IMG/VR virus record: IMGVR_UViG_3300045988_018548
Length of the DNA: 44,185 nt
From: a virus
Taxonomy: Duplodnaviria > Heunggongvirae > Uroviricota > Caudoviricetes
Reading direction: 5' to 3' (one strand)
This document shows, piece after piece, positions 1-35,957 of the stretch (the first letter of the stretch is position 1; every line of letters starts with the position of its first letter). The translations under genes and the position numbers were made by a program. Under the pieces are notes generated by a model. It did no database searches, was not told where the DNA came from, and worked only from the letters and a program-made list of their open reading frames with translations.

Positions 1-119
1 ATGCTTCGATATCTGTGATTTTCATTTCTCTCTACTCCGTTCTCGTTGTCGATGGAGTAAATATAATAGGGTCGAGGGTAATAGTCAACTAGTCATTGCA
101 GAAAATAGATAAAAAAAAT
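1..119. repeat. terminal direct repeat, exact copy of 44067..44185
   Basis: 119/119 nt identical at both window ends; length matches a common assembler k-mer, so probably circular-assembly overlap rather than a biological terminal repeat. Confidence 0.9.
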
Positions 120-376: not shown

Positions 377-862
377 TCATTTAACAGCCCTCCCGATAGC
401 CTCAGCCTCCTGCCACGGTTTACCGTCGAACAGCGCCAGACGACCTGCTGTACGGCGGCGCAGGCCGAGTAATGGTTTGCCGTTCTGGTTGATGAACAGC
501 GTTAGCTTGGCGCGAAGTATCGCAACATCACCAGATCGCAGTGCCTTACCTGTGCCAGTAGTAGCTGCAATCACGCCAGCACCCGCGTTATATACCAGGT
601 CGCACACTGCATCGAACTGCGCCTGTGCCAGTGAATGGTGTGCTGCGGCATCAACCGCAGCCACGGCCTTAGCCATATCACGATTCAGTAACAGGATGCC
701 TTGCCCCGGCGTGATGGTCTTACCTGGTGTTACGTCCGGCCCGTAGTGACCATAACCAATAGTCAGATACTTCTCGTTCGGCGTAGCACGATACGCAGTA
801 CCACGGAATCCCTCGAACGCGGCGGTGAAATGCAATCCATTATCTGAAATGTTTCGAGACAC
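377..862 (-). CDS. endolysin, phage lysozyme (GH24, P22 gp19 / T4 e-like)
   Basis: 161 aa; FEGFRGTAY...YLTIGYGH lysozyme N-terminal signature; GTG start at 862 preceded by GGAGG. Confidence 0.85.
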   Translation of the reverse strand: MSRNISDNGLHFTAAFEGFRGTAYRATPNEKYLTIGYGHYGPDVTPGKTITPGQGILLLNRDMAKAVAAVDAAAHHSLAQAQFDAVCDLVYNAGAGVIAATTGTGKALRSGDVAILRAKLTLFINQNGKPLLGLRRRTAGRLALFDGKPWQEAEAIGRAVK

Positions 863-1112
863 GCTTATGTCCTCCGTACGACAGCCACGCCTGACGAATC
901 TGACGCAGCGCGACTAATGTGATTAACGTCTCAGGCAACGTTGGTGACACGCTGCCCTGTAACAGGTGGATACATCCGGCGGCGCAGACAATCGCAGTCA
1001 GGATATAGAGCACACGCCCGAATAACCCGTCGTCCACGTGCTCATTATACACGTTGAACAGGGACGAAGCGCCCATTGCCAGCATTACGACAAACCAGAA
1101 TAGCTCAGTCAT
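840..1112 (-). CDS. holin-like small membrane protein (two predicted TM helices)
   Basis: Track ORF 840..1193; likely start ATG at 1112 (MTELFWFVVMLAMG) after GGGAGGA; hydrophobic segments LFWFVVMLAMGASSLF and VLYILTAIVCAAGCIHLL; overlaps endolysin start. Confidence 0.5.
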   Translation of the reverse strand: MTELFWFVVMLAMGASSLFNVYNEHVDDGLFGRVLYILTAIVCAAGCIHLLQGSVSPTLPETLITLVALRQIRQAWLSYGGHKRVSKHFR

Positions 1113-1413
1113 GAGGTCCTCCCGGGCGGGAAATATCGCCACCCGATACGATGCCAGAAAGGCGGGAATAGATAGGCATCCAGAGAATGGCAATGATGAA
1201 TCCGAGGCCAGCTATCTCGCGCTCACCGGTAATACCGAACCATTGAGCGGCAAGAGGCGCACCGAAAATGGCACACGCAAAGCCGGTTAGAAGAAATACC
1301 AGTCCGTCAATCGGCCCGGATATAGACTTTTTATGTTGTCTTAGTCCGACCAATCCACCGACCAGTGCGGCGGCGAGAAGCCACCCCGTCACTGTTTCAG
1401 TAAATTTATCCAA
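1105..1413 (-). CDS. holin/antiholin-like membrane protein (three predicted TM helices)
   Basis: 102 aa with three hydrophobic helices; stop overlaps start of next lysis gene (ATGACTGA). Confidence 0.5.
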   Translation of the reverse strand: MDKFTETVTGWLLAAALVGGLVGLRQHKKSISGPIDGLVFLLTGFACAIFGAPLAAQWFGITGEREIAGLGFIIAILWMPIYSRLSGIVSGGDISRPGGPHD

Positions 1414-1488
1414 GATGAATCCTCCAGGTGCGTATTAAGTATGCAGTAACTGGAGGATACCACGGGTAGGAATTATCCTAATAGTTGT

Positions 1489-1827
1489 TTATTTGTGTCT
1501 CCAGATGTATTGTCGTCTCTGCGGTTTCGTCGGAATATCATCGTACCCCAGCGATTTCCAGTAATTAAATAACCGATTAGCGATTGCTGCACGTTCCTTT
1601 GTTTTAAACTCACCGAGATTCACGGCCTTCCCGTTCTGGAATCCGCAGGCGCGGACTGCTTTGCGTCTGGCTTGAATCTCCGGGTGCAGCGCGTTACGGC
1701 GTCGCTTGTGTATTCTGGTGTTCGCTCTCGGTGAAAGCGGCGCAAGGCCGCTTCGTTTCAGGATGTCAGTTGCAAGGCTCATATTCCGAGAATCTCGCGG
1801 GCCATTTCTTCTGTAACTTTCGAACAA
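1489..1827 (-). CDS. hypothetical basic protein, possible AP2-like DNA-binding domain
   Basis: ORF in leftward accessory cluster; NGKAVNLGEFKTKERAAIANRLF resembles AP2 core by eye only. Confidence 0.3.
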   Translation of the reverse strand: MFESYRRNGPRDSRNMSLATDILKRSGLAPLSPRANTRIHKRRRNALHPEIQARRKAVRACGFQNGKAVNLGEFKTKERAAIANRLFNYWKSLGYDDIPTKPQRRQYIWRHK

Positions 1828-2178
1828 GGTTCGTTAATTACCTGTTCGGCGAATTCACGTAACTTTGCTTCAAGTTTCGCATAGTCTCTGTGGCCAACCC
1901 AGTCACCGTCTGCGTCTTTCTCTAAGTCAATACACCCAGTAACCCAGTCTTCTTTTAAATCGTATCTCTGTGCCATAATCACTTCTCCTGTTTACCAAGT
2001 CGCTTAGGGGAGCAGATAGCGCGTACCTCTGAATCGTTGGGTTTGTCCCCCTGAAACAGGAAGTGCGCATTTTCTGCGGCGCGTGCCGCTGACTGGCACG
2101 CCTCCATCGAGTAAAACGTTTCTGATGCCGCCAGTTGCATCTGGCCCGCGGACAATACCCATATAAATAAGATGCTGG

Positions 2179-2691
2179 TCATTTAAGTTTAGCCCCGCAA
2201 TCCAGACATTTTTTAGTAAACCCCGGCGCGAAGCCTTTACGTAACTGCGCTGTGTTGGCGTGCTTGCACTCATCAGCTTTGGTCACACCGCAATTAATAC
2301 ATACGGCGGGAGCCTTTCCGTTAACTAATCGCCAGTTATGGTGGCATTCCTGCGCGTCTTCTTTCCGGCAACCAGATTGTTCCGGCGGTACAGGCGTCGA
2401 GGTACACCGACAATTTACCGTTGTCCCAGGCACATGTTCACCCACTACATAGCGCTTACCACCATCGATGTACCCACCCTTGCGTATAAGTTTGTAGGCC
2501 TCCGCATCACCTGTTGCTTTGACCAAGGCCAGGTGCAACTCCTTAATCTGTGCCGAAGCGTCGCGTAACTGATTCTTAAGTGACAACACCTCGTGCGCCA
2601 GGTCTTCGCACTGTTGCTTGTACGGGTTGCTATTTACCTGCTGCCGTAGTTGGTCAATCAGCCACTCGAATACTTCGTTTTTGTTACTCAT
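2179..2691 (-). CDS. hypothetical Cys/His-rich protein (coiled-coil N-terminus, zinc-binding-like C-terminus)
   Basis: Track ORF 2179..2718; probable start ATG 2691 after GAGAGGAGAG; C-terminal CRC..C..HH..CINC..C pattern. Confidence 0.4.
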   Translation of the reverse strand: MSNKNEVFEWLIDQLRQQVNSNPYKQQCEDLAHEVLSLKNQLRDASAQIKELHLALVKATGDAEAYKLIRKGGYIDGGKRYVVGEHVPGTTVNCRCTSTPVPPEQSGCRKEDAQECHHNWRLVNGKAPAVCINCGVTKADECKHANTAQLRKGFAPGFTKKCLDCGAKLK

Positions 2692-2710
2692 CTTCTGTCT
2701 CTCCTCTCGC

Positions 2711-2989
2711 TTATTCAACAGCGCCTGTTATTGCGATAAGCCCGGTGTTATCGCGGCGACGATACTTACGAATCACCGTTTTAAGTTCTCCATTGCTACT
2801 CTGATGCCCGAAAGTGACCGGCAACTCTTCTCCTCCTGACATCCCGAACTCAGTGTCCGTCGGTTTGTTCCTCCACCCCTGAATAAACCCATTATTATCG
2901 CGCGTTATGTACCGGTAGTTGTTAGGGAGGGGCAACTCCAGCCCCTCAAAATCAACGGTCACGGTGTAGCTGTTAAAATTCATAGTCAA
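2711..2989 (-). CDS. hypothetical protein
   Basis: 92-aa ORF in same-strand accessory cluster, start overlaps stop of upstream small ORF. Confidence 0.35.
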   Translation of the reverse strand: MTMNFNSYTVTVDFEGLELPLPNNYRYITRDNNGFIQGWRNKPTDTEFGMSGGEELPVTFGHQSSNGELKTVIRKYRRRDNTGLIAITGAVE

Positions 2990-3145
2990 TTACCCCAAAC
3001 TCATTAATGATTTGAGCCTTGTAGAAGTTGCCGTGTTTAGCCAGGTGGTACGCCTGCGCCATAGTCATCTCGCGGTAAGTTGCAGCGCTGTTTTCGAACT
3101 CCATAATCATCAAAGTAACCATATTCTGCCTCTCCTCTCGTTTGT

Positions 3146-3183
3146 GTAAATGAATGGTATCCTATTCTCCCCCAGTGTGCAAG
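3146..3183 (-). promoter_or_regulatory. class II conserved promoter motif (degenerate copy) for leftward small genes
   Basis: Minus-strand reading TTGCACACTGGGGGAGAATAGGATACCATTCATTTACA aligns with motifs at 4199..4232, 26307..26342, 35924..35957; followed by GAGGAGAGG and ATG at 3123. Confidence 0.4.
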
Positions 3184-3338
3184 TAAATTTTATTGGTGTT
3201 TGTATTGTTGCATCTCCTGCAATAGTCGCTTCGATTGTTGCGTTTGGTGAAATAGAACAAAAATGAGAAAAATGATACGCTGCTGTGTAGCAGCGTAAGT
3301 CACTCAGTAAAATCTCAAACTATTGTTACAATATAGCA

Positions 3339-3533
3339 TCACAATTCTGGCGGCTGCGGTAACGGCATCCAGTACACCACGTCGCAGCTACGAATATTTG
3401 AATTGTTCTCCGTGAAACTATCCCAGCAGTAATTTCCATCAAGCCATTTAACTTCTACATCCACGCCATCTGAAACCAGCACATCTTCAAAGTCATCAGG
3501 CATCCGCTCACTACACTTAATCCACTTACCCAT
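3339..3533 (-). CDS. DUF551-like protein
   Basis: 64 aa; C-terminal VVYWMPLPQPPEL matches the W-M-P-L-P-x-P-P hallmark of DUF551; RBS GAGGTGA. Confidence 0.5.
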   Translation of the reverse strand: MGKWIKCSERMPDDFEDVLVSDGVDVEVKWLDGNYCWDSFTENNSNIRSCDVVYWMPLPQPPEL

Positions 3534-3536
3534 ATC

Positions 3537-3704
3537 TCACCTCGGATTCGCAACAGACAACACAACAGACAACACAACAGACAACACACCAGCTTTCCAC
3601 GCCCGCCACGCGAGACGCGTCTTGACGTTCAGGTACTCTTTCTTCGAACCCTTGTTAACGGGCAGACCCTCGACAACGGCCCACCGTTCGAATGCTTCTT
3701 TCAT
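3537..3704 (-). CDS. small hypothetical protein with C-terminal (VLSV)x3 repeat
   Basis: 55-aa ORF not in track (below 60 aa); stop overlaps downstream start; contains the 12-bp tandem repeat. Confidence 0.3.
   Translation of the reverse strand: MKEAFERWAVVEGLPVNKGSKKEYLNVKTRLAWRAWKAGVLSVVLSVVLSVANPR
3552..3587. repeat. 12-bp tandem repeat x3 (aacagacaacac)
   Basis: Three perfect contiguous copies read directly from sequence. Confidence 0.9.
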
Positions 3705-3707
3705 AAC

Positions 3708-3908
3708 TTAGTCCTCCAGAACTTCGCATTCAGAATTTCGGACGAACAAATTCTCGCCGCGATGATTTACAACAAACCCATATTCGCAACTAATCCCTAC
3801 GTCGAACTCATCTCCAACAGAGACGCCAAAGTACGCAAGGCTAACGTCCTGGTATTCCTCAGGGCATGTTTGTTCAACATCAGTTATTCGAATCCTCATT
3901 AACGGCAA
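3708..3908 (-). CDS. hypothetical protein
   Basis: 66-aa ORF, tightly packed in leftward cluster. Confidence 0.35.
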   Translation of the reverse strand: MPLMRIRITDVEQTCPEEYQDVSLAYFGVSVGDEFDVGISCEYGFVVNHRGENLFVRNSECEVLED

Positions 3909-4168
3909 CCTCCCTCAGAGTCGTCGGCACGAGCATCATGATTCGATGCCGTTGTGAATGAGGCTTTCAGTCCGCCATCGAATACCCCTTTGAATTTAAA
4001 ATTGTTGCCAATTAATTCCAGATTATCGCGTAAGGCGAACCCGGGTTTCTTTCTTACCAGGCCCCATACGTCGACTATATTATCCTCGTCATACTCGTTC
4101 TCGTCCTGCAACACTATTACGTACTGCCCACCGCGTTTCGTTTTCACCAACTGACCCTTCTTAAACAT
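3899..4168 (-). CDS. hypothetical protein
   Basis: 89-aa ORF; GAGGAG RBS upstream of ATG 4168; first gene downstream of class II promoter at 4199..4232. Confidence 0.4.
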   Translation of the reverse strand: MFKKGQLVKTKRGGQYVIVLQDENEYDEDNIVDVWGLVRKKPGFALRDNLELIGNNFKFKGVFDGGLKASFTTASNHDARADDSEGGCR

Positions 4169-4198
4169 AACCCCAACTCCTCTGTCTCGTTCCGATAA

Positions 4199-4232
4199 GT
4201 GAATAGTGTCCTATTATATTGGGGTGTGCAAG
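4199..4232 (-). promoter_or_regulatory. class II conserved promoter motif (TTGCAC-N17-CACTAT on minus strand)
   Basis: Minus-strand reading TTGCACACCCCAATATAATAGGACACTATTCAC; near-identical to motifs at 26307 and 35924. Confidence 0.5.
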
Positions 4233-4396
4233 AGAATAGTTACGATGCCGTTGTGATTCTTTCGTTTCTTAAAAGAGTACGCAACGCAGTGGGTGGGCGT
4301 TAGCCCACCCCAGCGGAGTGAAGTACTCTCTACCTTGCTTACGGCAACTATAGAAACTTTTAATTATCAGTGGCTTGGGTATTTAGGCGGGATTAA

Positions 4397-4540
4397 CAAT
4401 AGACTTTGGCCCTTCCGAAAGCGCCAGCGGAACTACACTCAAGTGCCTAATGGCACGCGTTGCGTTCCCTGCCGCTCCGCGGTCGCTTGCGATATCTCAC
4501 AAGCTCAGTGAAGCTTAGCATATTTTTAAGTAAAAGTCAA
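4397..4540 (+). repeat. ~144-bp intergenic element, copy A (paralog of 35715..35857)
   Basis: About 75% identity to copy B by eye, same orientation, with hairpins at matching positions (gtgcc-taat-ggcac; aagct-cagtg-aagctt followed by T-run). Confidence 0.8.
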
Positions 4541-4586
4541 TACCAGTAGCATCTTTTGTATCTTAGTAACTTTGTGTTCGGTTTTG

Positions 4587-4615
4587 GTTGCTTTTACAAA
4601 GTTACCGCCTTATAC
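4587..4615 (+). promoter_or_regulatory. sigma70-like promoter TTGCTT-N17-TATACT for the rightward early operon
   Basis: Hexamers read from sequence with 17-bp spacing, about 30 bp upstream of RBS AGGAG and ATG 4647. Confidence 0.5.
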
Positions 4616-4646
4616 TTCGATACATGTTACACAGGAGAGCGTGAAA

Positions 4647-4816
4647 TGACTATCAATGAAGTTGCAGAATTAATCGGCGTCACCCGCCAGACAATTAATA
4701 ACTGGATTAAGAGTGGAAAGTTTCCTGATTGCAGCGTTAAAGTAATGGGTCGCAGAATGCCGGGTACATTTGACCGTAATAAAGTTGAATCGTGGGTTAA
4801 AGAGAACGTTAAATAA
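4647..4816 (+). CDS. AlpA/excisionase-family HTH DNA-binding protein
   Basis: 56 aa; MTINEVAELIGVTRQTINNWIKSGKFP matches the AlpA-type HTH pattern; RBS AGGAG. Confidence 0.6.
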
Positions 4817-7480: not shown

Positions 7481-7499
7481 AAGGGGCGTTAAGCCCCTT
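7481..7499 (-). terminator. stem-loop (GGGGC-GTTAA-GCCCC) between convergent genes, U-tract on minus strand
   Basis: Hairpin overlapping the stop of the XRE gene; A-run on plus side gives U-run on minus transcript. Confidence 0.5.
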
Positions 7500-7704
7500 C
7501 ACCGAACGCCAGCCACTTGGCGTCTACCTCCAGCACTTCCGCCAGTTTAAACAGCGTTGCCGGGCGGACGTCCTGGGTTACCCCAAGTGCCAGCTGGTTA
7601 ATTGCGCTCTGGGAAACCCCGGTCAGCACCGCCAGACGGCGCTGGGAGATGCCGAGTTCTTTACGGCGTTTTTCTACACGGATGCCTAGTTCAGATGGTT
7701 GCAT
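7489..7704 (-). CDS. XRE-family HTH transcriptional regulator (Cro/CI-like)
   Basis: 71 aa; ELGISQRRLAVLTGVSQSAINQLALG is a classic XRE HTH; RBS AAGGAG; divergent from early promoter. Confidence 0.75.
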   Translation of the reverse strand: MQPSELGIRVEKRRKELGISQRRLAVLTGVSQSAINQLALGVTQDVRPATLFKLAEVLEVDAKWLAFGEGA

Positions 7705-7724: not shown

Positions 7725-7797
7725 TTGATATGTGAATAGTACCATATTAATTATTTTAGAAAAGCCCATTGACATGTGAATAGTTCACTATTATAGT
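7725..7797 (+). promoter_or_regulatory. early promoter TTGACA-N17-TATAGT (7769..7797) with two TGTGAATAGT operator-like sites
   Basis: Consensus -35 and near-consensus -10 at 17-bp spacing; dyad AATAGT-TC-ACTATT in spacer; second TGTGAATAGT copy 44 bp upstream. Confidence 0.6.
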
Positions 7798-7828: not shown

Positions 7829-8350
7829 ATGTTAGAGAAATTCTTAGTATTACTGGAACGTTTCGTAGTTGCACATGAACTGATTGCTGCGAATAGTGCG
7901 AAACAACCGACCAATAAATCTATAGGTGAATTGACTGTTGACGTAGCGGTAACGGGGGTAGAGACAGTTAAAAAAGAACTGGCTAAAGCACTTGAAGAAG
8001 TCGAGAAGGCGAAAGAAATCCCGGTCGAAGGTGAAGACCTCGTTGACACTAAACCGGCGGAAGAAGAGAAGCCGAAACGTAAGCCGCGTAAAGCTAAAGT
8101 AGAGGAACCAACGCCAGAGCCGGAAGAAGAGAAGGAAGAAGTAGATTACCAGTCTCTGCGCGACCAGATTCAGGCTATCGACGATGCGATTAACGAAGGT
8201 CCGAGCGATGCCGCGTGTGATGATTCCGATGAACTGCTGGAAGAGTTCACCGGTAAGAAGATGAAGATTGCCGCGATTAAAGACGAAGACCTCGCCGAGT
8301 ACCTGGAGCGCCTGACGGCAATCAAGAACAAGTATTTCGAAGAAGAATAA
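7829..8350 (+). CDS. acidic early protein, function unknown
   Basis: 173 aa; strong RBS GAGAGGAGAG; C-terminal half very rich in Glu/Asp with a central Lys/Pro-rich patch. Confidence 0.5.
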   Translation: MLEKFLVLLERFVVAHELIAANSAKQPTNKSIGELTVDVAVTGVETVKKELAKALEEVEKAKEIPVEGEDLVDTKPAEEEKPKRKPRKAKVEEPTPEPEEEKEEVDYQSLRDQIQAIDDAINEGPSDAACDDSDELLEEFTGKKMKIAAIKDEDLAEYLERLTAIKNKYFEEE

Positions 8351-8357
8351 CTATCAC

Positions 8358-8377
8358 GCGGCCTTCGGGCCGCTTTA
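8358..8377 (+). terminator. stem-loop gcggcc-ttcg-ggccgc followed by TTTAACT
   Basis: Read from sequence just after stop of 7829..8350. Confidence 0.4.
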
Positions 8378-8393
8378 ACTGAGGGTCGGAATT

Positions 8394-8609
8394 ATGAGTA
8401 ACGTATACAAAGTAATAAACGAACAAATAGTTGTAGAAATAAGTGACTCAGATGTGGGTTGCCAGCAATTCTTTGTTTTGAATGGTGCGTGGCGCGGGAC
8501 TCTTGACTATGCCACCGGCGAATACTGGGCAGACATGTACCCAACCGATAAAACAGCGGTACATACAATTCGTCCCGCCGTTAAAGGTGAATTCGCACCG
8601 TACTACTGA
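8394..8609 (+). CDS. hypothetical protein
   Basis: 71-aa ORF with RBS GAGGGT. Confidence 0.35.
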   Translation: MSNVYKVINEQIVVEISDSDVGCQQFFVLNGAWRGTLDYATGEYWADMYPTDKTAVHTIRPAVKGEFAPYY

Positions 8610-8620
8610 GGGTCAGAATT

Positions 8621-8824
8621 ATGGCTATTTTAGTTAAGAAAAGTGGTCTTATGATTTCTGGTAGCGTTGTCTCTGAAAATGATTTGGTTTACGTATTTCA
8701 GGCGGTAGACAACAAACACCCTACGACGGTAAAGAAGGTCAGCAAAGTTGAGAAGGTTTTCGACGGCGATTTTTCTATTGACGATGTTTTCACGTGGATT
8801 AACTCTGCGAGGGTAAAGAAATGA
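8621..8824 (+). CDS. hypothetical protein
   Basis: 67-aa ORF with near-identical RBS context to the preceding gene. Confidence 0.35.
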   Translation: MAILVKKSGLMISGSVVSENDLVYVFQAVDNKHPTTVKKVSKVEKVFDGDFSIDDVFTWINSARVKK

Positions 8825-9093
8825 TTTACCAACTCTACCGCGCCGTAGACAGGCGGGATAACACAGAGGCGCTATGGCTGTTGCGCGCGCCGTCCGGTGC
8901 ACACCAGATGGAAGAGATGGCGTACTTAGGCAAAGTGCCACGGCCTAAAGACATAGGCCGCCACGTGTCACATATTAAGCGCACGACTTTCGCCAAACCG
9001 GACTTTTACGTCTTCGAGTCGATGTATGGCTGGGCTATGCACTGCGACCATAAGACACGACATTTAATTGACCAGTGGGAGAGCAGAGCATGA
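8821..9093 (+). CDS. hypothetical protein
   Basis: 90-aa ORF, start overlaps upstream stop. Confidence 0.35.
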   Translation: MIYQLYRAVDRRDNTEALWLLRAPSGAHQMEEMAYLGKVPRPKDIGRHVSHIKRTTFAKPDFYVFESMYGWAMHCDHKTRHLIDQWESRA

Positions 9094-10361
9094 TTCTTAA
9101 AGAACGTGGTGGCAATAACGATGTGCACGCCTTATTGTCACCATCCGGCGCTAAAAAGTGGTTAACCTGCGCCGCATCACTGGCCTGTGAAAAAGATATT
9201 CCTAACACGTCTGGTAAAGCCGCGGTATTAGGTACGGCTATGCACACCATAGCGGAGATGCACTTAAACCAGTACATCAAAGGCACTGCGTTGCCGTTAG
9301 AGCGTGAAGTTGGTGCTTATGTGCTGGATGAGGGTAAAGGTCAGATTAAGGCACTAATCAGTCCGATGAAAGGCGAGGTACTGATTACGGCGGATATGAT
9401 TGAGCAGGTGCGCAAGTACACCGACTACTGCAAAGCGATTATAGATGTAGCGACTTACGCCAGGCTGGAAATGCGCGTCAATCTTACTGAGGTATTGCAT
9501 CCGGGCTACGAAGGCGTTGAGACGTTCGGAACCGCCGACCTTGTTGCCGTACAGGAACTGGCTAACACCGACGAGCACATGCTCGTTATTGGAGACCTTA
9601 AAACAGGACGGCATCGTGTCGAAGCGAAAGAAAACAAGCAGCTTATGCTTTACGCTCTCGGTGTTTATCGCCGACTCAAGAGACGTTATAACATCACCGT
9701 GGTTCGTCTGGTCGTCTTCCAGCCGTATGCTGGCGGTGCGTCGGAGTGGGACATCTCGGTTGAAGGTCTGGAACTGTTCGCTAAGTTCGCGCAGAAACGA
9801 GCACTGTTAGCCCTTGATGCCTATTTCCGTGGTAAGAAGAACCTGAAAGCGTCGGACTTCAAGCCGTCGGTTGATGGCTGCCAGTGGTGTCGGTTCTCTG
9901 AACAGTGCGCCGCACGTACAAAAACCGTTAACGCTGTACTGGCGGAAGAACTGGAAGACGACTTTGCGCTGGAGCTTACGCCGGAGCAACTCGTAGCTGA
10001 GTATGAGAAGTTGCCGTTATTGCACCAGCACATCGACAAGGTTGAGAAAGCTATGGCAGCCGCGTTGCATTCCGGTAAGAAAGTGCCGGGGTACAAGCTG
10101 GTTGAGGGCCGCCCAGGAAATCGCGCGTGGAAAGATAAGCAGGCGCTTATGGACACCCTGTCTCGATTTGAGCTTGGTGTCGAAATGCTCCATAAAGAAG
10201 TCCTAATGTCCCCGACCGAGGCTGAGAAGCAGCATAAGGGCTCAGAGCTATGGGCTGCGCTGGAGAAACACGTAACTCGTAACCACGGCACACCATGTGT
10301 CGCAACGGCAGATGATAAACGGCCTGAGTGGAATCAGGTTAGTGAAGACGATTTAGAATAA
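9075..10361 (+). CDS. PD-(D/E)xK nuclease, DUF2800 / Cas4-like
   Basis: N-terminal LSPSGAKKWLTC, core GTADLV...IGDLKTG, C-terminal CQWCRFSEQC cysteine cluster; ATG at 9090 after GGGAGAG may be the true start. Confidence 0.75.
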   Translation: MGEQSMILKERGGNNDVHALLSPSGAKKWLTCAASLACEKDIPNTSGKAAVLGTAMHTIAEMHLNQYIKGTALPLEREVGAYVLDEGKGQIKALISPMKGEVLITADMIEQVRKYTDYCKAIIDVATYARLEMRVNLTEVLHPGYEGVETFGTADLVAVQELANTDEHMLVIGDLKTGRHRVEAKENKQLMLYALGVYRRLKRRYNITVVRLVVFQPYAGGASEWDISVEGLELFAKFAQKRALLALDAYFRGKKNLKASDFKPSVDGCQWCRFSEQCAARTKTVNAVLAEELEDDFALELTPEQLVAEYEKLPLLHQHIDKVEKAMAAALHSGKKVPGYKLVEGRPGNRAWKDKQALMDTLSRFELGVEMLHKEVLMSPTEAEKQHKGSELWAALEKHVTRNHGTPCVATADDKRPEWNQVSEDDLE

Positions 10362-10365
10362 AGTG

Positions 10366-10394
10366 TTGACACCTGAATAGTTAGCTATTATAGT
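10366..10394 (+). promoter_or_regulatory. promoter TTGACA-N17-TATAGT with AATAG-N4-CTATT dyad in spacer
   Basis: Hexamers and spacing read directly; same architecture as 7769..7797 and 14210..14238. Confidence 0.6.
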
Positions 10395-10459
10395 TCTAAT
10401 CACTGGCCGGGCAGCTTCCCGGAGTAAACTGAAAATCTAAACTTAATGAGGGCTGAACT

Positions 10460-11086
10460 GTGGGACTGAAATTAAATCTGCGTAAAGTAAACACTGCATG
10501 GGTTAACGTATTCGAACGCGAAAAAGACCGTGAAAACGATGATGGCTCAATCACTAAAGGCCAGTACAGCGCGACTATCATCCTGCCGTCTGACCACGCA
10601 CAAATCGACGCGCTCTACGACACCGTTTACGCTGTGGTTGAAGAAGCGTTAGGCGCAGCCGCCGCAGAGAAGTGGATGAAGTCCAACTACGGCGAAGGAA
10701 AGCACATGGATAAATGCGCGATTAAAGACATTGCCGAGCGTGACAATCCGTTTGAAGACTTCCCGGAAGGCTTCTACTTCAAAGCGAAGGCACAGAAACA
10801 ACCGCTGATTGTAACCTCTAAAAAAGGCGAGACTCAGGTAGAGCAGGACTTCAATGTAGACGGCGAACAGATTGAAGGCGAACAGGTTTACAGCGGCTGC
10901 GTAGCTAACGTAAGCGTTGAAATCTGGTTCAGCCAGAAATATAAAGTTCTCGGGGTTAACCTGCTGGCGATTAAATACGTCGGCGAAGGTAAAGCGTTCG
11001 GTGGTTCTAAAGTCGCTGCAAGCGTCGATGACCTTGAGGACAACGAAGAAGATGAAGCACCGCGCCGCGAACGTCGCCGCCGCTAA
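10460..11086 (+). CDS. DUF2815-like single-strand DNA-binding protein
   Basis: 208 aa; acidic C-terminal tail DDLEDNEEDEA typical of SSBs; sits beside DUF2800 as usual for this module; GTG start. Confidence 0.55.
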   Translation: MGLKLNLRKVNTAWVNVFEREKDRENDDGSITKGQYSATIILPSDHAQIDALYDTVYAVVEEALGAAAAEKWMKSNYGEGKHMDKCAIKDIAERDNPFEDFPEGFYFKAKAQKQPLIVTSKKGETQVEQDFNVDGEQIEGEQVYSGCVANVSVEIWFSQKYKVLGVNLLAIKYVGEGKAFGGSKVAASVDDLEDNEEDEAPRRERRRR

Positions 11087-11105
11087 TATCTGAATCAATT
11101 TAACT

Positions 11106-11130
11106 AAGGCCCTTCATTGGGCCTTTTTAC
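11106..11130 (+). terminator. rho-independent terminator (aaggccc-ttcatt-gggcctt + TTTTT)
   Basis: GC-rich hairpin followed by T-run, immediately after stop of 10460..11086. Confidence 0.7.
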
Positions 11131-11145
11131 TAAGGGTCGAAAATA

Positions 11146-11424
11146 ATGGCAGCGGAACTTAAGAGATACAGACGCATCACCTACTGCAAATTTTGTAAGG
11201 CAGAAGGTAAAAAAGTTAGAGCAATTTGGATGACTAAATATCCTCCTGCTTACAAGTTACGAGACTGGTATAAACACTATGCATGCGACGAGCATAAACA
11301 TTTAATAGAGGACACAGACCCAAACCGGACTTGGGCAGAAATCCTAGAGCGCAGTAAAAACCAGAAACCAGAACGCGACGACCATCTCACAGAAGCAGAC
11401 TATCAGACGTGGTACAGACTATGA
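11146..11424 (+). CDS. small zinc-ribbon-like protein
   Basis: 92 aa; CKFC ... CDEH Cys/His pairs. Confidence 0.4.
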   Translation: MAAELKRYRRITYCKFCKAEGKKVRAIWMTKYPPAYKLRDWYKHYACDEHKHLIEDTDPNRTWAEILERSKNQKPERDDHLTEADYQTWYRL

Positions 11425-13604
11425 ACACATTGCTTTACTTAGACTTTGAAACATTCTCCGAAGCCGATTTAAAGAAAGTCGGCTCCTACGCTTACGCCGA
11501 ACACCCGACTACAGAAGTGCTCATCTGTACCTATGCTTTTGACGACGAGCCTGTACAGGTATGGGATTGCACCGACGGCAGCGACATGCCGGGCGATTTG
11601 CATCGCGCGTTACGCCGTCTGGTTAAGCCGAACAGCCGCATTAAGATGGTGTGGCACAACGGCTCAATGTTCGACCGCCTAATCATGAAGCACTGCTGGG
11701 ACTTTGATATTCCGGTAAGCAACACCGTTGATACGATGATTTGGGCGTTTCGTCACGCGCTACCTGGTTCACTTGATGCGTTGTGTGAAGTGCTGGGCGT
11801 GTCCGCAGACAACGCGAAAGATAAACGCGGCAAGGCGCTGATTCAGCGTTTTTCTAAACCGACGCCGAAGAACTACAAAATCCGCCGATACACCGCCGAA
11901 ACGCACCCGGATGAGTGGGCGCTGTTCATCAAGTATGCCGTGAGTGACATCACGGCGATGCGTGAAGTGTTCCATAAGCTGCCGCGGTGGGGTAACTCCG
12001 AGTTCGAAGACCGTGTACTGGAGCTGGACCAGTTAATTAATGACCGCGGGTTTAAGGTAGACGTTGCACTGTCGGAAGCCGCGATTGAAGCCGTGGAGAA
12101 GCACAAGGCACAGTTACAGGAAGAAGCCCAGCGCAAATATGGCGGCTCTCTTACTGGGAAGGACTTTCTGCCTATTCTGCGTGAACTTGCGCCAGCGCAC
12201 CGCATCAACAACGCACAGAAGTCGACGCTTAACGACCTGCTGGCGGATGATGACTTACCGGACGACGCACGCACAATTATCGAAATGCGCCTCGGGGCTG
12301 CGTCCACCGCATCAACGAAATATAACCCGCTGCTGTTGGGTCGCTCGTCGGACGACCGCCGCCGCGGTTGCATTCAGTACGGCGGGGCCAAGCGTACGCT
12401 ACGGTTTGCTGGCAAAGGCTTCCAGCCACAGAACCTGGCGCGCGGGTACTATCACGATGATGAGCTGGATAAAGGCATTTCTGCGTTACTTAAAGGCCGT
12501 GCGCACCGTCGTTTCGATGTAGCCAAACTAACGGCATCGACGGTTCGTAGCTGCATCATACCGGAAGCTGGGCATAAGTTTGTCGTAGCTGATTACTCTA
12601 ACGTTGAAGGCCGTGGTTTGGCGTGGCTGGCTGGCGAAGAAACCGCGCTCGATACATTCCGTGCCGGGCTGGATATTTACTGCGTAACCGCAGGTAAGAT
12701 GTTCGGCATGGAGCCGGATTACATTAAGAAAGAACGCAAAGACTTGCGCCAGATAGGTAAGGCCTGCGAACTTGGACTTGGCTATGCGGGCGGGGTAGGT
12801 GCTTTCGTTCAGTTTGCTAAGAACCTCGGCCTCGACCTGGTTGATATGGCAAAAACAATGGATGGGACTTTCCCCGACCACATCTGGGCCGCTACCGCAC
12901 GTGGATATGAGTGGGCGCGTATTCAGGAAGCCAAGCGACCACCACGTCCAGGTGAAAAGGATGACCGACCATCATATATTCTTGATAAGAAAGTGTGGCG
13001 TACCTGTGACGCTATCAAGCGCATGTGGCGCGAGTCTCACCCGGAAACAGTAGCTTTCTGGCGAGATATTGAAGATGCAGCTATGGCGGCTATCCGCAAC
13101 CCAGGTAAAGAGTTCACCGCAGGGCCGCGGGGTGTTAAGTTTTCGCGTAACGTAGAAACAGACACCAACGGCAACAAAGTCGCGGGCTGGTGGTTGCGCA
13201 TGACGTTGCCGTCGGGCCGCGTTATGTCTTACCCGGGCGTTGGTTTAAGTGTATCAAAAGAGACAGACGAAGACGGGAAGGTGTCTACTAACGTGCGCAT
13301 AAAGTACCAGGGTGAAAACCAGTTAACCCGTCAGTGGGGCTTCCAGTACACATATTCCGGTAAACTCGTGGAAAACTGCACTCAGGCGCTGTGCCGTGAT
13401 TTGCTGGCTAACGCCCTGCTGAACGTAGAGGCCAACGGCTACCCGATTGTACTTCATGTTCACGATGAAATTATCTGCGAGACACCAGATTTACCAGAAT
13501 ACAATGTCGCAGAGCTGGAACGGTTGATGTGCGAATTACCGGAGTGGGCAGAGGGTTTCCCTCTTGTAGCGGAAGGTGCGGAGTTAAAACGTTATGCTAA
13601 GTAA
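11409..13604 (+). CDS. DNA polymerase, family A (3'-5' exonuclease + polymerase domains)
   Basis: 731 aa; Exo I LDFETFS; polymerase motif C VHDEIICE; probable start ATG 11421. Confidence 0.9.
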   Translation: MVQTMNTLLYLDFETFSEADLKKVGSYAYAEHPTTEVLICTYAFDDEPVQVWDCTDGSDMPGDLHRALRRLVKPNSRIKMVWHNGSMFDRLIMKHCWDFDIPVSNTVDTMIWAFRHALPGSLDALCEVLGVSADNAKDKRGKALIQRFSKPTPKNYKIRRYTAETHPDEWALFIKYAVSDITAMREVFHKLPRWGNSEFEDRVLELDQLINDRGFKVDVALSEAAIEAVEKHKAQLQEEAQRKYGGSLTGKDFLPILRELAPAHRINNAQKSTLNDLLADDDLPDDARTIIEMRLGAASTASTKYNPLLLGRSSDDRRRGCIQYGGAKRTLRFAGKGFQPQNLARGYYHDDELDKGISALLKGRAHRRFDVAKLTASTVRSCIIPEAGHKFVVADYSNVEGRGLAWLAGEETALDTFRAGLDIYCVTAGKMFGMEPDYIKKERKDLRQIGKACELGLGYAGGVGAFVQFAKNLGLDLVDMAKTMDGTFPDHIWAATARGYEWARIQEAKRPPRPGEKDDRPSYILDKKVWRTCDAIKRMWRESHPETVAFWRDIEDAAMAAIRNPGKEFTAGPRGVKFSRNVETDTNGNKVAGWWLRMTLPSGRVMSYPGVGLSVSKETDEDGKVSTNVRIKYQGENQLTRQWGFQYTYSGKLVENCTQALCRDLLANALLNVEANGYPIVLHVHDEIICETPDLPEYNVAELERLMCELPEWAEGFPLVAEGAELKRYAK

Positions 13605-13725
13605 ACTGATTATCGCGGTGCTGGCGGGATTCGCCGCCGGTGTCTACTGTCACGAGGGTCAATACGGCATGATGGCCGCCGTATTGGGTATGTTAGTAGC
13701 AATTCATCTGTGGGTGATGGAATGA
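13594..13725 (+). CDS. small membrane protein
   Basis: 43-aa hydrophobic ORF (below track threshold) overlapping polymerase stop. Confidence 0.3.
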   Translation: MLSKLIIAVLAGFAAGVYCHEGQYGMMAAVLGMLVAIHLWVME

Positions 13726-13807
13726 AAATTTACTGGTTCTACGAAGAAGACTGCCGAATCTGTCCGCGCTGCGGGATTGAGCACACGAAACGAGAGGGGT
13801 GCGTATT

Positions 13808-13960
13808 ATGACAAGGTTTGTATTTTGGGCAATAGTAACCATGCTCGCACTGTTACTCGGTGCGGGAGTAGCTGCAATGTTCTGTTACAGCATGTTTTTT
13901 AAGTTTGTCGGTGTTGCCCTTCTAGGCGGGGCCTTCATTACCCGGATTCTGCGGTCATGA
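13808..13960 (+). CDS. small membrane protein
   Basis: 50-aa ORF with two hydrophobic helices; ATGA overlap with downstream VRR-NUC start. Confidence 0.3.
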   Translation: MTRFVFWAIVTMLALLLGAGVAAMFCYSMFFKFVGVALLGGAFITRILRS

Positions 13961-14241
13961 CTCCGGAAGGCAAGATTCAGAAATACGCAAAAGACCGATT
14001 CGAGGCCATTGGCGGCCTCGTTCGCAAGATGGCATTTGAAGGCCGGCGAGCCGCCATGGACCTCCTGGTAATTCTCCCCGGTGGCATCGTCTGGTTCGTC
14101 GAGATTAAGAAAGACGAAAATACGAAGCCAGACCCGCACCAGATACGTGAACACGAGAGATTCCGAAAACGCGGCGCAAATGTTTTTGTCGTTGGGTCGT
14201 TCAAACAGGTTGACGACCTAATAGCGAACTATTATAGTTAG
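13957..14241 (+). CDS. VRR-NUC domain nuclease
   Basis: 94 aa; ...VWFVEIKKDENTKPDPHQ... matches VRR-NUC D/E-x-K core by eye. Confidence 0.6.
   Translation: MTPEGKIQKYAKDRFEAIGGLVRKMAFEGRRAAMDLLVILPGGIVWFVEIKKDENTKPDPHQIREHERFRKRGANVFVVGSFKQVDDLIANYYS
14210..14238 (+). promoter_or_regulatory. promoter TTGACG-N17-TATAGT with AATAG-N4-CTATT dyad, embedded in 3' end of VRR-NUC gene
   Basis: Hexamers and spacing read directly. Confidence 0.55.
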
Positions 14242-14271
14242 TCCTACACCAACAATATAAGGAATTGAGAA

Positions 14272-14466
14272 ATGAAACACGAATATGACCGCAAACCAGC
14301 ACGTGACATCGTACCGGGCGATATGATTTTCAACGTTAAGACTCGCCAGCCTGTTGCCGTTGATACGGTGTTCGTAGAGTCAAACGGTAAACTGGTCATC
14401 GAAGATGTAACTGGTAACGTTACGGCGTTCGGACGTAAAGAGCTGGTACTCTACGTTAAGGATTGA
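14272..14466 (+). CDS. hypothetical protein
   Basis: 64-aa ORF with RBS AAGGAA. Confidence 0.35.
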   Translation: MKHEYDRKPARDIVPGDMIFNVKTRQPVAVDTVFVESNGKLVIEDVTGNVTAFGRKELVLYVKD

Positions 14467-15893
14467 GTATGTCTAAATTTATCCGTCGAGAGTACCAGAA
14501 GCTCATGACTTCGTTCATGCTGCAACACCCGCGCTGTAATATCTGGTGCGGCATGGGAGGGGGTAAAACCTCCTCCACTATGTGGGTGCTAAACCGCCTG
14601 TTTCGCAACGGGCAACTTACAGAAGAGGACCGCGTGTTAATCCTCGCCCCATTGCGAGTTGCGTCAGGCACGTGGCCTGCTGAACAAGAGAAATGGAACT
14701 TCCCTTGTCTGCGTGTTGTCGACGCTACGGGTTCAGAGAAGCGCCGCATCGCGGCGCTGGAGTCTGATGCTAACGTGGTGTGCACTAACTACGAAGTTAT
14801 CGAGTGGCTTATCGACTACTACGGCAAAGACGACTGGCCTTTTACGGTTATCGTTGCCGATGAAAGCACGAAGCTTAAATCATTCCGTAGCCGTTCTGGC
14901 GGAAGCAAGCGAGCAAAGGCGCTTAGTAAAGTGGCATTTGGAAAGGTTAAACGTTTCATCAACCTGACTGGCACACCGTCGCCAAACGGACTCAAAGACT
15001 TGTGGGGTCAGAACTGGTTTATCGACGCTGGCGAGCGACTCGGCTCATCGTACACAGCATTCACAGACCGCTGGTTTAACTCGGTACAGAAAGGTAAGTC
15101 GGCGATGGCGCGTGAATATCACGCGCGCCCGGGTGCAGATAATGAGATTCATCAGAAGATGAAAGACATCAGCCTTACCATCGACCCTGCTGAGTGGTTT
15201 GGATGTGAAGCACCAATTATCGTGCCGGTTGAAATCGACCTGCCTAAGAAAGCGCGTCAGGCGTACATAGATATGGAGGAGAAGTTATTCGCGGAACTGG
15301 AGAGCGGAGAAGTTGAAGCGGCTAACGCTGCGGCGAAGACGTCGAAGTGTTTGCAGATTGCCTCTGGTGCCGTGTATGTATCGGGCCCGGACGGCGAAGC
15401 AACGAAAGACTGGGAGAAAGTGCACGACACGAAACTGGATGCGCTGGAGTCCATTGTTGAGGAGTTACAGGGTGCGCCGCTACTGGTAGCCTATCAGTTC
15501 AAGCACGAACTGGAGCGCATCCTTAAGCGATTCCCGCAGGCGCAGGCGTTTGCAAAAGGTGCTAAGGGTAATAAACAGATGGAGGCGTGGAACCGTGGCG
15601 AAATCGAAATCTTATGCGTCCACCCAGCGTCCGCTGGTCATGGTTTGAATTTACAGGACGGCGGACATCATCTGGCGTTTATTTCGCAAGGCTGGAACCT
15701 CGAGCACTATTTGCAGGTTGTCGAGCGCATAGGCCCGGTACGCCAGAAGCAGGCAGGCCACGAGCGCCCGGTATTCCTCTATCACATCGTTGCTAAAGAC
15801 ACGCTGGACGAGGTTGTTGCCGCGCGCACCGACGAGAAGAAATCTGTACAGGAAGAATTGCTTAATTACATGAAGAGACGAGGTAAGAAATGA
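14463..15893 (+). CDS. SNF2-family (DEAD/DEAH-box) helicase
   Basis: 476 aa; Walker A GMGGGKTS, DEAH-like VIVADESTKLK, LTGTPSPNGLKDLW motif. Confidence 0.8.
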   Translation: MSMSKFIRREYQKLMTSFMLQHPRCNIWCGMGGGKTSSTMWVLNRLFRNGQLTEEDRVLILAPLRVASGTWPAEQEKWNFPCLRVVDATGSEKRRIAALESDANVVCTNYEVIEWLIDYYGKDDWPFTVIVADESTKLKSFRSRSGGSKRAKALSKVAFGKVKRFINLTGTPSPNGLKDLWGQNWFIDAGERLGSSYTAFTDRWFNSVQKGKSAMAREYHARPGADNEIHQKMKDISLTIDPAEWFGCEAPIIVPVEIDLPKKARQAYIDMEEKLFAELESGEVEAANAAAKTSKCLQIASGAVYVSGPDGEATKDWEKVHDTKLDALESIVEELQGAPLLVAYQFKHELERILKRFPQAQAFAKGAKGNKQMEAWNRGEIEILCVHPASAGHGLNLQDGGHHLAFISQGWNLEHYLQVVERIGPVRQKQAGHERPVFLYHIVAKDTLDEVVAARTDEKKSVQEELLNYMKRRGKK

Positions 15894-16075
15894 AACTTAA
15901 TGTTGGCGATGAAATATACAGCGTACATTCATTCAATACTTTCACCATCGAGTACATATCAAAAGACGGCAACAGCTTTGTCTTGGTAAGCTCGGACGGT
16001 AAATACGAAAAGTCACGCTGCTACACGCTGCCGGACATAAAGCGCAGTTTCAAGAAAAGCGAAGGTAAGAAATGA
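15890..16075 (+). CDS. hypothetical protein
   Basis: 61-aa ORF overlapping helicase stop. Confidence 0.35.
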   Translation: MKLNVGDEIYSVHSFNTFTIEYISKDGNSFVLVSSDGKYEKSRCYTLPDIKRSFKKSEGKK

Positions 16076-16209
16076 ACATCATAGCTCCGATTCCGGCATT
16101 GCAAAAACGTATCAAGGAACTTGAGGAGGAGGTTCTACGACTACGACAGCAAAGAGACGCCGCTAATGCGCAACTGGCGTTTGTACTGGAGAAGTTATCC
16201 GAAGATTAG
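16072..16209 (+). CDS. small coiled-coil protein
   Basis: 45-aa ORF, ATGA overlap with upstream gene. Confidence 0.3.
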   Translation: MNIIAPIPALQKRIKELEEEVLRLRQQRDAANAQLAFVLEKLSED

Positions 16210-26306: not shown

Positions 26307-26342
26307 TTGCGCACCCCAACATAATAGGATACTATTCACTTA
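26307..26342 (+). promoter_or_regulatory. class II conserved promoter motif (TTGCGC-N17-TACTAT)
   Basis: TTGCGCACCCCAACATAATAGGATACTATTCACTTA, about 35 bp upstream of ATG 26377. Confidence 0.55.
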
Positions 26343-26376: not shown

Positions 26377-26568
26377 ATGACAGGTATTACTATGTTCTTC
26401 TTAATCATTATCGTTTTAGTTTATTTTATCCCGTTTTTAGTGGCCCATATGCGCGGACATAAAGCGAAACTGGCGATATTCATGGCTAATCTGTTTCTCG
26501 GCTGGGTTCTGCTGCCGTGGGTATTTATTTTAATCTGGGCTTGCAACTCGAATGTCAAAGAGAAGTGA
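26377..26568 (+). CDS. small membrane protein (two predicted TM helices)
   Basis: 63 aa; MFFLIIIVLVYFIPFLVA and LFLGWVLLPWVFILIWA; RBS AGGAG. Confidence 0.45.
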   Translation: MTGITMFFLIIIVLVYFIPFLVAHMRGHKAKLAIFMANLFLGWVLLPWVFILIWACNSNVKEK

Positions 26569-32271: not shown

Positions 32272-32511
32272 TTATTCCTCTGACTTACGGCGACGACGCT
32301 TAGTACCACCGCCGTTGTTGTGCGCTTCTTCGTTGTCCGGTTGAGTCGCAACCAGTTCATCCGCTTCTACCACACCGCGAACAGGCATCACCTGACCATC
32401 AACACCGCGAACAGGCATCACCTGACCATCAACACCGCGAACAGGCATCACCTGACCATCAACAACGTCAACGTGGGTGTATTTTTCGCGGATTACATAA
32501 TTATCTACCAT
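32272..32511 (-). CDS. small protein with three DGQVMPVRGV repeats
   Basis: 79 aa; contains the perfect 30-bp tandem triplication; basic C-terminus. Confidence 0.4.
   Translation of the reverse strand: MVDNYVIREKYTHVDVVDGQVMPVRGVDGQVMPVRGVDGQVMPVRGVVEADELVATQPDNEEAHNNGGGTKRRRRKSEE
32371..32460. repeat. 30-bp tandem repeat x3 (aacaccgcgaacaggcatcacctgaccatc)
   Basis: Copies 2 and 3 identical, copy 1 differs at one base; in-frame. Confidence 0.9.
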
Positions 32512-35604: not shown

Positions 35605-35628
35605 GTTTCTCCTTTCTCGATAAGTAAA

Positions 35629-35648
35629 GCCCCGCCATAAAGCGGGGC
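35629..35648 (-). terminator. minus-strand terminator (gccccgc-cataaa-gcggggc then U-rich)
   Basis: 7-bp GC stem; minus transcript continues UUUACUUAUC; lies between head genes and spanin start. Confidence 0.5.
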
Positions 35649-35714
35649 GCTAGTCCTTATCATTTAAACATAGAAACGGCGTAATCTCAGTAAACCAGTT
35701 ACTTTTTACACAAG

Positions 35715-35857
35715 CAATAGAGTACGGCCCTTCCGAACGCGTCAGCGTAACTACACTCAGGACTTACGTCCCGCTCCGTTACCTGCCCGCGCCGCGGTCG
35801 CTTGTTCATACTTCACAAGCTCAGGTGGAGCTTATCATATTTTTAGTGAAAAGTCAA
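35715..35857 (+). repeat. ~143-bp intergenic element, copy B (paralog of 4397..4540)
   Basis: Aligned by eye to copy A; hairpins ggac-ttac-gtcc and aagct-caggtgg-agctt at matching positions. Confidence 0.8.
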
Positions 35858-35870
35858 CTATTCGAATAGT
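35857..35870. promoter_or_regulatory. perfect 14-bp palindrome ACTATTCGAATAGT (operator-like)
   Basis: Self-complementary; half-sites match the AATAG/CTATT dyad in promoters. Confidence 0.5.
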
Positions 35871-35923
35871 TTATTCTAACATTTACAATTACGAAGAATA
35901 ACTGGAATACGTAAACAAATAGT

Positions 35924-35957
35924 TTGCAGACACCAATATAATAGGGTACTATTCACT
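35924..35957 (+). promoter_or_regulatory. class II conserved promoter motif (TTGCAG-N17-TACTAT)
   Basis: TTGCAGACACCAATATAATAGGGTACTATTCACTCA, about 25 bp upstream of ATG 35982. Confidence 0.55.

Follow-up and report, generated by a model that had tools for sequence, protein, structure and literature searches.

The DNA analyzed here (hereafter the window) is the whole 44,185-nucleotide sequence of IMG/VR virus record IMGVR_UViG_3300045988_018548. It comprises the complete genome of a K1G-like siphophage of the genus Kagunavirus (Guernseyvirinae), and a 4-kb test segment of it is ~90–92% identical, over 76–83% of the segment, to many Kagunavirus phages of Escherichia. Our subject is a 14-bp inverted repeat, AATAG-N4-CTATT, found at promoters across this genome, together with a 71-residue XRE-family protein that is encoded beside one of them. 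The XRE gene is read leftward and is divergent from a rightward block of replication and recombination genes, whose first operon (from 7829, a DUF2800 nuclease and others) follows promoter A. The spacer of promoter A contains an exact copy of the dyad, O1, and an imperfect copy with one mismatch, O2 (AATAGTACCATATT), lies between O1 and the XRE start codon. A candidate promoter for the XRE gene, proposed from a consensus scan (10/12 matches), has a −35 element that overlaps the edge of O1, so placed that O1 would lie at about −40; O2 overlies either the +1 of this candidate or an alternative extended −10 (TGgTACTAT) on the same (−) strand. Coordinates are collected in Table 1, and gene order was read from the annotated relative BUCT825 and from Pfam scans of window proteins.

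A preliminary description of this region had reported three promoters of the form TTGAC(A/G)-N17-TATAGT (A, B, and C), each with AATAG...CTATT in its spacer, a second sequence copy 44 bp upstream of the first dyad in the manner of tandem operators, and a divergent Cro/CI-like regulator. The three promoters, their dyads, and the divergent gene, which encodes an HTH_3 protein, are all present, and the sequence TGTGAATAGT does recur at a distance of 44 bp, its upstream copy being part of the O2 dyad. A motif search over the genome, which had been suggested as a check, recovered the listed copies together with others that had been missed, namely exact dyads at promoters D, E, and F and one-mismatch dyads at promoters D2, H, and that of the head operon. 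In total, the window has six exact copies of AATAG-N4-CTATT against 0.05 expected from shuffled sequence (0 of 100 shuffles reached six) and 14 copies with at most one mismatch against 1.15 expected. When all 5-mer inverted repeats were counted without guidance, AATAG/CTATT ranked first in the window as well as in BUCT825 and phage Jersey. Every exact copy is within a promoter of the sigma-70 type, inside a −35/N17/−10 arrangement and 30–100 bp upstream of a start codon. The one-mismatch copies located at promoters are O2 and those of D2, the head operon, and H (the last repeated at 80); two others, at 19141 and 38607, are within chance expectation, and one at 1480, in the spacer of a weak promoter-like site, may be real.

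The dyad occupies three registers relative to the promoter elements and overlaps about ten promoters, in both orientations relative to the downstream gene. At promoters A, B, and C it is in the spacer and abuts the −10, the final T of its right arm being the first T of the −10 hexamer. These are the three best sigma-70-like consensus matches in the first 20 kb; they share ~30 bp, and the orthologues of B and C are annotated as promoters in the Jersey record. At D, D2, E, and F the dyad lies over the −10. Read on the strand of the downstream gene, D, E, and F share ~40–45 bp of the form TTGC(A/G)(C/G)-N17-(T/C)ACTAT, after which (A)CACCAACAA stands close to where transcription should start. We prefer TACTAT as the −10 of this class because a −35-like hexamer stands 17 bp upstream, because the Jersey orthologue of D has a perfect TTGACA 18 bp upstream, and because TACTAT is invariant in relatives; the nearby TATAAT/CATAAT was rejected, having no −35 at the right distance and a first base that is polymorphic in relatives. 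A leftward tail-operon promoter over dyad E (TTAACA-N17-TAGTAT) was also considered and rejected, as it is not conserved in BUCT825. At H and at the head-operon promoter the dyad is centered on the −35. The preliminary description had called H a related promoter driving a leftward early operon; the promoter exists, as TTGACT-N17-TATATT, but its spacer holds no dyad, and the one-mismatch dyad over its −35 is seen in the same arrangement in BUCT825 and Jersey. Promoter H and its dyad appear twice (again at 60..93, where the promoter at 60..88 is the same promoter) because the window carries an exact 119-bp terminal duplication (1..119 = 44067..44185), which is either an assembly overlap or terminal redundancy and which leaves a unique length of 44,066 bp.

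The occurrence of three registers indicates that the dyad is a separate element and not part of a promoter consensus. Its variable register and orientation fit a repressor operator, since a promoter element would be expected to keep one position and one orientation with respect to the gene it serves, and the overlap with otherwise good sigma-70 elements points to repression. The −35/−10 spacers measure 17 bp in the window and 17 or 18 bp in relatives, not the over-long 19–20 bp of MerR-type promoters. The same motif has been published under another interpretation. A PHIRE consensus, tgAATAGTa-ccTATTat-T, with seven copies in phage fBC-Eco01 was ascribed to a phage RNA polymerase (PMC9825357), and seven PHIRE promoters were listed for phage Golestan (PMC7203180). 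A promoter recognized by a phage RNA polymerase or sigma-like factor would agree with these reports and with the length of the block shared by D, E, and F. However, the annotations of BUCT825, Jersey, and Shemara list no RNA polymerase gene, and of nine window proteins scanned, the majority of the larger non-structural ones among them, each matched either a different Pfam family or no family. All of the sites, moreover, sit in a good sigma-70 −35/N17/−10 frame, and three registers in both orientations are incompatible with a promoter element of fixed position, so that we consider such a polymerase or factor extremely improbable. The Jersey GenBank record itself annotates several of these promoters as host-type. 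In the literature that we searched, no paper interprets the motif as an operator, connects it with the XRE gene, or puts it to a test, and apart from the PHIRE reports no work on the motif or on promoters or operators of Jersey-like phages was found.

Conservation was assessed with the XRE protein as bait, by which 76 IMG/VR loci were fetched; the promoter regions of 27–35 Kagunavirus contigs were then aligned by BLAST anchoring with no selection on the dyad. At promoter A (35 aligned sequences) the dyad arms and both hexamers are invariant, at promoter D (32 sequences) the ten arm positions never vary, and at B, C, and D2 arm changes occur in one to three sequences. The D2 dyad, which has one mismatch in the window, has none in BUCT825 or in the majority of related contigs. 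The central N4, on the other hand, varies in up to nine sequences per position, with six different centers at A, and the stretch linking the −35 to the dyad differs in at least ten sequences and is also of variable length. Constraint on the dyad arms equals that on the −35 and −10 hexamers and does not extend to the bases that separate or adjoin the arms. Loss of the dyad from promoters that keep their −35 and −10 elements, which the preliminary description had named as evidence against a regulator, was not seen in these contigs. O2 is nearly invariant in 34 Kagunavirus loci. Because the spacer of promoter A is 17 bp in 20 loci and 18 bp in 14, the distance from O2 to O1 is correspondingly 44 or 45 bp, and the suggested likeness to tandem operators, insofar as it implies phase-dependent cooperativity, is unsupported.

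These alignments also bear on the notion that the dyad has no function, its copies being either remnants of an ancestral promoter cassette or an accident of AT-rich, −10-like sequence. The long stretches shared within the A/B/C and D/E/F classes are what such a cassette would leave, and TATAAT-like and TACTAT-like hexamers do overlap the dyad arms. Yet the arms stay fixed while the central four bases and the adjacent linker drift, indels included, and the dyad is common to otherwise different promoter classes in different registers. A concerted change at all sites of a related clade, described below, requires selection by a trans-acting factor. We therefore regard a functionless dyad as highly unlikely.

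The comparison was extended to two other clades (comparison loci included L004, L049, L050, and L052). Jersey, a Salmonella phage of the genus Jerseyvirus whose XRE protein is 51% identical to that of the window, keeps TAATAG-N4-CTATTA at orthologous promoters, and at its promoter E orthologue the dyad is shifted by 2–3 bp relative to the flanking promoter elements. Taken with the three registers, this shift again describes a separate element, one for which overlap with the polymerase footprint would suffice. Two genomes of Cornellvirus, likewise from phages of Salmonella hosts and with XRE proteins 42–44% identical to ours, contain no AATAG-N4-CTATT even at one mismatch. Each has instead seven copies of AWTAY-N4-CTAAT (0.2–0.3 expected), with the same geometry and at promoter-like sites, a pattern no commoner than chance in either the window or Jersey. 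The orthologue of promoter A was verified among these sites, others look orthologous, and two are centered on a TTGACT −35. The change concerns base 2 of the half-site and affects every right arm and roughly half of the left arms. All of the Cornellvirus sites changed together, and by lineage and not by host, which requires that the factor reading them be phage-encoded and sequence-specific. A DNA-binding protein of E. coli or Salmonella has little to recommend it beyond TGTGA-N5-TCAC at site A, loosely like a CRP half-pattern; a CRP-like reading was rejected because this occurs at one site only and with the wrong spacing. The motif follows phage clade, in that Jersey shares it with Kagunavirus, whose host is E. 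coli, whereas Cornellvirus, which like Jersey infects Salmonella, differs, and the chance that a host protein is responsible appears minimal. Dyads upstream of more distant XRE homologues (IMG/VR loci L051–L080) yielded nothing usable, the start codons being uncertain and the families too diverse. It is very probable that the dyad is a functional binding site for a phage factor.

The XRE protein matches HTH_3 (PF01381) over residues 11–65 with 49.8 bits (gathering cut-off 23, E=3.6e-13). Among solved structures its best sequence match by phmmer is phage 434 Cro (E=3e-7, residues 6–68). An AlphaFold2 model (pLDDT 83) has five predicted helices, and its top Foldseek matches are 2cro and 3cro, with TM scores of 0.80–0.87 at 39–41% identity. 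The protein thus resembles 434 Cro in being a single domain of about 70 residues, modeled as a five-helix bundle, with no C-terminal oligomerization or peptidase domain. 434 Cro and repressor bind as dimers to 14-bp operators, of which the outer 4–5 bp are read and the center is uncontacted, and the first glutamine of their recognition helix pairs with adenine at operator position 1. The 14-bp dyad described here is built and conserved in a 5-4-5 pattern to which an XRE dimer is predicted to bind, and both the first glutamine of the XRE recognition helix and the A at dyad position 1 are invariant in all three clades. At the sequence level the dyads overlap core elements of the predicted promoters, and O1 and O2 occupy the protein's own control region, between its gene and promoter A. 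A homologue with 45% identity is the annotated cro of a lambdoid Klebsiella phage, located beside CI and adjoining 14-bp ACAA-N6-TTGT operators. Many database records name the XRE gene "transcriptional repressor" or "Cro". Of the helix-turn-helix proteins considered, it is the only one that is present in all three clades and also has two flanking sites. We judge it probable that XRE is the factor that binds the dyad, and likely, from position alone, that the effect of such binding is repression. The combined reading, that the dyad is the operator of a Cro-like, self-regulated XRE repressor which occludes most phage promoters, we hold to be somewhat better than an even chance.

Under this reading, host RNA polymerase would start at all of the dyad promoters on infection. 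XRE would accumulate, bind the dyads as a dimer, and exclude RNA polymerase through overlap with the core elements; with O1 and O2 flanking its own promoter, it would also limit its own synthesis by autoregulation. As the level of the Cro-like protein rose, promoters would be turned down in graded order. Perfect dyads are found at the replication and recombination promoters A–C and at the accessory-gene promoters D, E, and F, and the dyads at O2, at D2, and at both promoters that lead into structural genes have one mismatch; that shut-down is graded by operator quality is speculation. The earlier proposal that one regulator coordinates several early operons can be retained in part. The shared dyad is conserved across the clade and the XRE protein is a homologue of 434 Cro, but the sites are not a set of three "class I early" promoters: there are at least 8–10, in three registers, and they include the promoters of the lysis-containing operon and of structural-gene operons. 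A broader version, in which a single Cro-sized protein governs the genome of a strictly virulent siphophage through operators of graded quality at almost all host-type promoters and in three occlusion geometries, its level setting the temporal programme, and in which the operator-repressor pair was retuned in concert at base 2 of the half-site in Cornellvirus, seems to us doubtful. The one Kagunavirus RNA sequencing (RNA-seq) study, of phage K1B4, sampled at 5–120 min, cannot decide the timing, because its sampling is too coarse and its gene labels are ambiguous and could not be mapped confidently; its early gene 008, "Helix-turn-helix domain", may be the HTH_17 protein and not XRE, and its supplement lists host genes only.

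Several observations weigh against the assignment to XRE or against parts of it. The recognition helix reads QSAINQ in Kagunavirus and QSLITH in Jersey, two clades that share one dyad, and QSAISH in Cornellvirus, whose motif differs, so that it does not track the operator in a simple way. The flanks of the dyad are conserved yet asymmetric (GTG on one side, ATA on the other), and in Jersey and Cornellvirus O2 is no more than a half-site. The pattern AWTAY-N4-CTAAT was derived post hoc from the same two Cornellvirus genomes in which it was counted, and a strictly symmetric ATTAS-N4-STAAT is only weakly enriched there (7–8 copies against ~3.8 expected). If one repressor shuts every promoter, late genes must have another means to stay on. 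Furthermore, the operator may be real and bound by another phage protein, such as the HTH_17 protein, the NinH-like protein, or an unannotated small early protein. Among the three clades, the HTH_17 protein is confined to Kagunavirus and Jersey (75% identity), both of which have the AATAG dyad, and is without a detectable homologue in Cornellvirus, where the XRE gene heads the helicase-primase operon; the NinH-like protein is present in all three clades, and the XRE recognition helix, as noted, lacks a clean co-variation with the motif. Against HTH_17, Cornellvirus lacks it and nevertheless keeps a related 14-bp element of the same geometry, the promoter A orthologue included, and HTH_17/Xis-like proteins usually bind direct repeats as monomers. 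The divergence of the NinH-like protein (64% identity to Jersey, 69% to Cornellvirus) does not parallel the change in motif. Dyads are lacking at the promoters of both genes, whereas two are present at that of XRE, and the 14-bp 5-4-5 dyad is the 434 Cro pattern. The HTH_17 and NinH-like proteins are accordingly ranked below XRE as the binder, and a phage protein other than XRE is considered unlikely.

Table 1. Positions of promoters, dyads, and genes of the window referred to in the text
Feature	Position	Strand	Form or identity	Dyad	Remarks
Leftward operon	377..4168	−	small genes		lysis genes included per BUCT825 annotation
Promoter D2	3154..3182	−	TTGCAC-N17-TACCAT	3153..3166, one mismatch	inside D operon
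Promoter D (class 2)	4203..4231	−	TTGCAC-N17-CACTAT	4202..4215, exact	leads into leftward small-gene operon, which by relative's annotation ends in lysis genes
HTH_17 gene	4646..4816	+	56 residues, Xis/MerR-like		upstream of helicase-primase gene (+)
XRE gene	7489..7704	−	71 residues, HTH_3		divergent from rightward block
TGTGAATAGT copies	7731..7740; 7775..7784
O2	7735..7748		AATAGTACCATATT	one mismatch
Candidate XRE promoter	7753..7780	−	TTCACA-N16-TAAAAT
Promoter A	7769..7797	+	TTGACA-N17-TATAGT	7779..7792 (O1), exact
Rightward block	7829..16209	+	replication and recombination genes
Promoter B	10366..10394	+	TTGACA-N17-TATAGT	10376..10389, exact	upstream of single-stranded DNA-binding protein and DNA polymerase genes
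Promoter C	14210..14238	+	TTGACG-N17-TATAGT	14220..14233, exact	upstream of SNF2-type helicase operon
Promoter E	26307..26335	+	TTGCGC-N17-TACTAT	26323..26336, exact	upstream of Imm and phosphoesterase genes
Imm gene	26377..26568	+	superinfection-immunity family membrane protein, 63 residues		PF14373, E=9e-14; first gene after promoter E
Head-operon promoter	35829..35862	−	TTGACT-N17-TAAGCT	35849..35862, one mismatch
Promoter F	35924..35952	+	TTGCAG-N17-TACTAT	35940..35953, exact	upstream of 83-residue gene, 35982..36233
NinH-like gene	42386..42619	−	NinH-like		conserved in Kagunavirus, Jersey, and Cornellvirus
Promoter H	44154..44126 (element 44126..44159)	−	TTGACT-N17-TATATT	44146..44159, one mismatch	duplicated at 60..93

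After the replication block come tail genes read leftward, then a short rightward block (Imm, phosphoesterase, HNH), a first set of head genes read leftward, a single small gene read rightward, and, leftward again, genes for head, portal, and terminase proteins, with small genes up to 44091. No CI-type repressor (a helix-turn-helix protein with a C-terminal domain) and no integrase is annotated in BUCT825 or Jersey, and none was found among 17 window proteins in a scan that covered part of the proteome. Papers on Kagunavirus phages describe the group as strictly lytic (PMC7203180, PMC9825357).

Other features were observed near these sites. Directly upstream of the −35 of the head-operon promoter is a perfect 12-bp palindrome, CTATTCGAATAG (35860..35871), which corresponds to two everted dyad half-sites and is conserved in relatives; the promoter itself is nearly invariant in ~25 related contigs. 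Several Kagunavirus relatives (among loci L005–L038) have an extra exact dyad, ggtcAATAGGTTACTATTtgg, inside the D operon, just upstream of a terminator hairpin, CGCTGCTACACAGCAGCG; it is absent from the window, where the equivalent position is ~3300..3330. The head-operon promoter is followed by a structured, GC-rich leader of ~200 nucleotides (promoter and leader together span 35885..35605 on the (−) strand), with an intrinsic terminator at 35648..35629, just before the ATG at 35604. A paralogous copy of this promoter and leader at ~4548..4290 (−) is 79% identical over ~147 nucleotides. The head copy is almost invariant in ~25 related contigs, one of the Jersey group included. Within its terminator there is a compensatory replacement of C-G by T-A, and in a long helix that is predicted for the leader the two paralogues are distinguished by two double-compensatory pairs. 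Neither the window nor the head leader has a match in Rfam. The layout may be like that of an antitermination-controlled late leader, and it is conceivable that the HTH_17 protein is a partner of the leader. The second copy is located in an unusually long non-coding region of ~480 bp (4169..4645), between promoter D and the HTH_17/helicase-primase operon, which also contains a candidate rightward promoter, TTGCTT-N17-TATACT, at ~4589..4617; a replication origin may lie within this region.

Two further observations concern structural genes. The Mu-F-like head morphogenesis protein (36722..38614, −) has 630 residues against 347 in BUCT825, and residues 264–526 form an intein splicing domain (Pfam PF14890, E=4e-10) that the BUCT825 protein lacks. 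Three tandem 30-bp repeats (32372..32472) lie within a structural gene on the (−) strand, and the orthologue of this gene in Shemara is annotated with the remark that the repeats "may exist in several states".

Phages of the genera Kagunavirus and Jerseyvirus have been isolated widely and are proposed for therapy and food biocontrol, and their transcriptional programme is essentially unstudied. If the proposed reading is true, it would supply a simple wiring diagram of one small repressor and about ten operators and would correct a recurring annotation error, that of "phage RNA polymerase promoters". It would also provide compact, orthogonal promoter, operator, and repressor parts in two natural specificities, AATAG and ATTAG-type, and a natural case of concerted operator-repressor retuning across a phage subfamily. 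No new class of mechanism would be opened.

Among known systems, phage T4 MotA boxes are comparable as phage-specific elements in promoters of the host polymerase that are read by a phage protein. MotA boxes, however, replace the −35 at a fixed position and activate, whereas the dyad is symmetric and variable in register. The PHIRE "phage promoters" have a published consensus that is the same sequence as the dyad motif; those papers offer no operator reading and no link to XRE, and no gene for the RNA polymerase to which the motif was ascribed was found in the three annotated relatives or among the nine window proteins scanned. The controller proteins of restriction-modification systems (C.AhdI, C.BclI, C.Esp1396I) are small XRE-family dimers and are among the top fold matches of the XRE model. 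They bind dyads at their own promoter and autoregulate by concentration, first activating and then repressing, which resembles the O1/O2 layout; they differ in serving one operon, in place of about ten promoters, and are 24–30% identical to XRE in the fold alignment.

Lambda Cro is like the proposed XRE repressor in its role, as a small, early, dimeric repressor that lowers the promoters that produced it. It has a different fold (a winged helix with beta-sheet) and only two operator regions, and the late operon of lambda is under Q antitermination and not under Cro. The closest parallel is phage 434, whose Cro likewise has 71 residues and a single HTH_3 domain and is the best match of XRE in both sequence and fold. 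The 434 OR/OL operators (ACAA-N6-TTGT) are also 14 bp long with conserved outer 4–5 bp and a variable center, and they also lie over core promoter elements beside the regulator gene. The two systems differ in half-site, AATAG here and ACAA in 434, and in gene position, since the XRE gene, in the "cI position", diverges from the early rightward promoter and does not lie downstream of it. They differ too in that the operators proposed here, for which binding is predicted, are scattered over about ten promoters and are not gathered in two clustered control regions, and in that neither a CI partner nor an integrase is annotated in BUCT825 or Jersey, so that nothing points to a bistable switch. Dyad operators served by a Cro-type repressor make up a familiar control circuit; the twist is its setting in a strictly lytic phage, with operators over most of the promoters.

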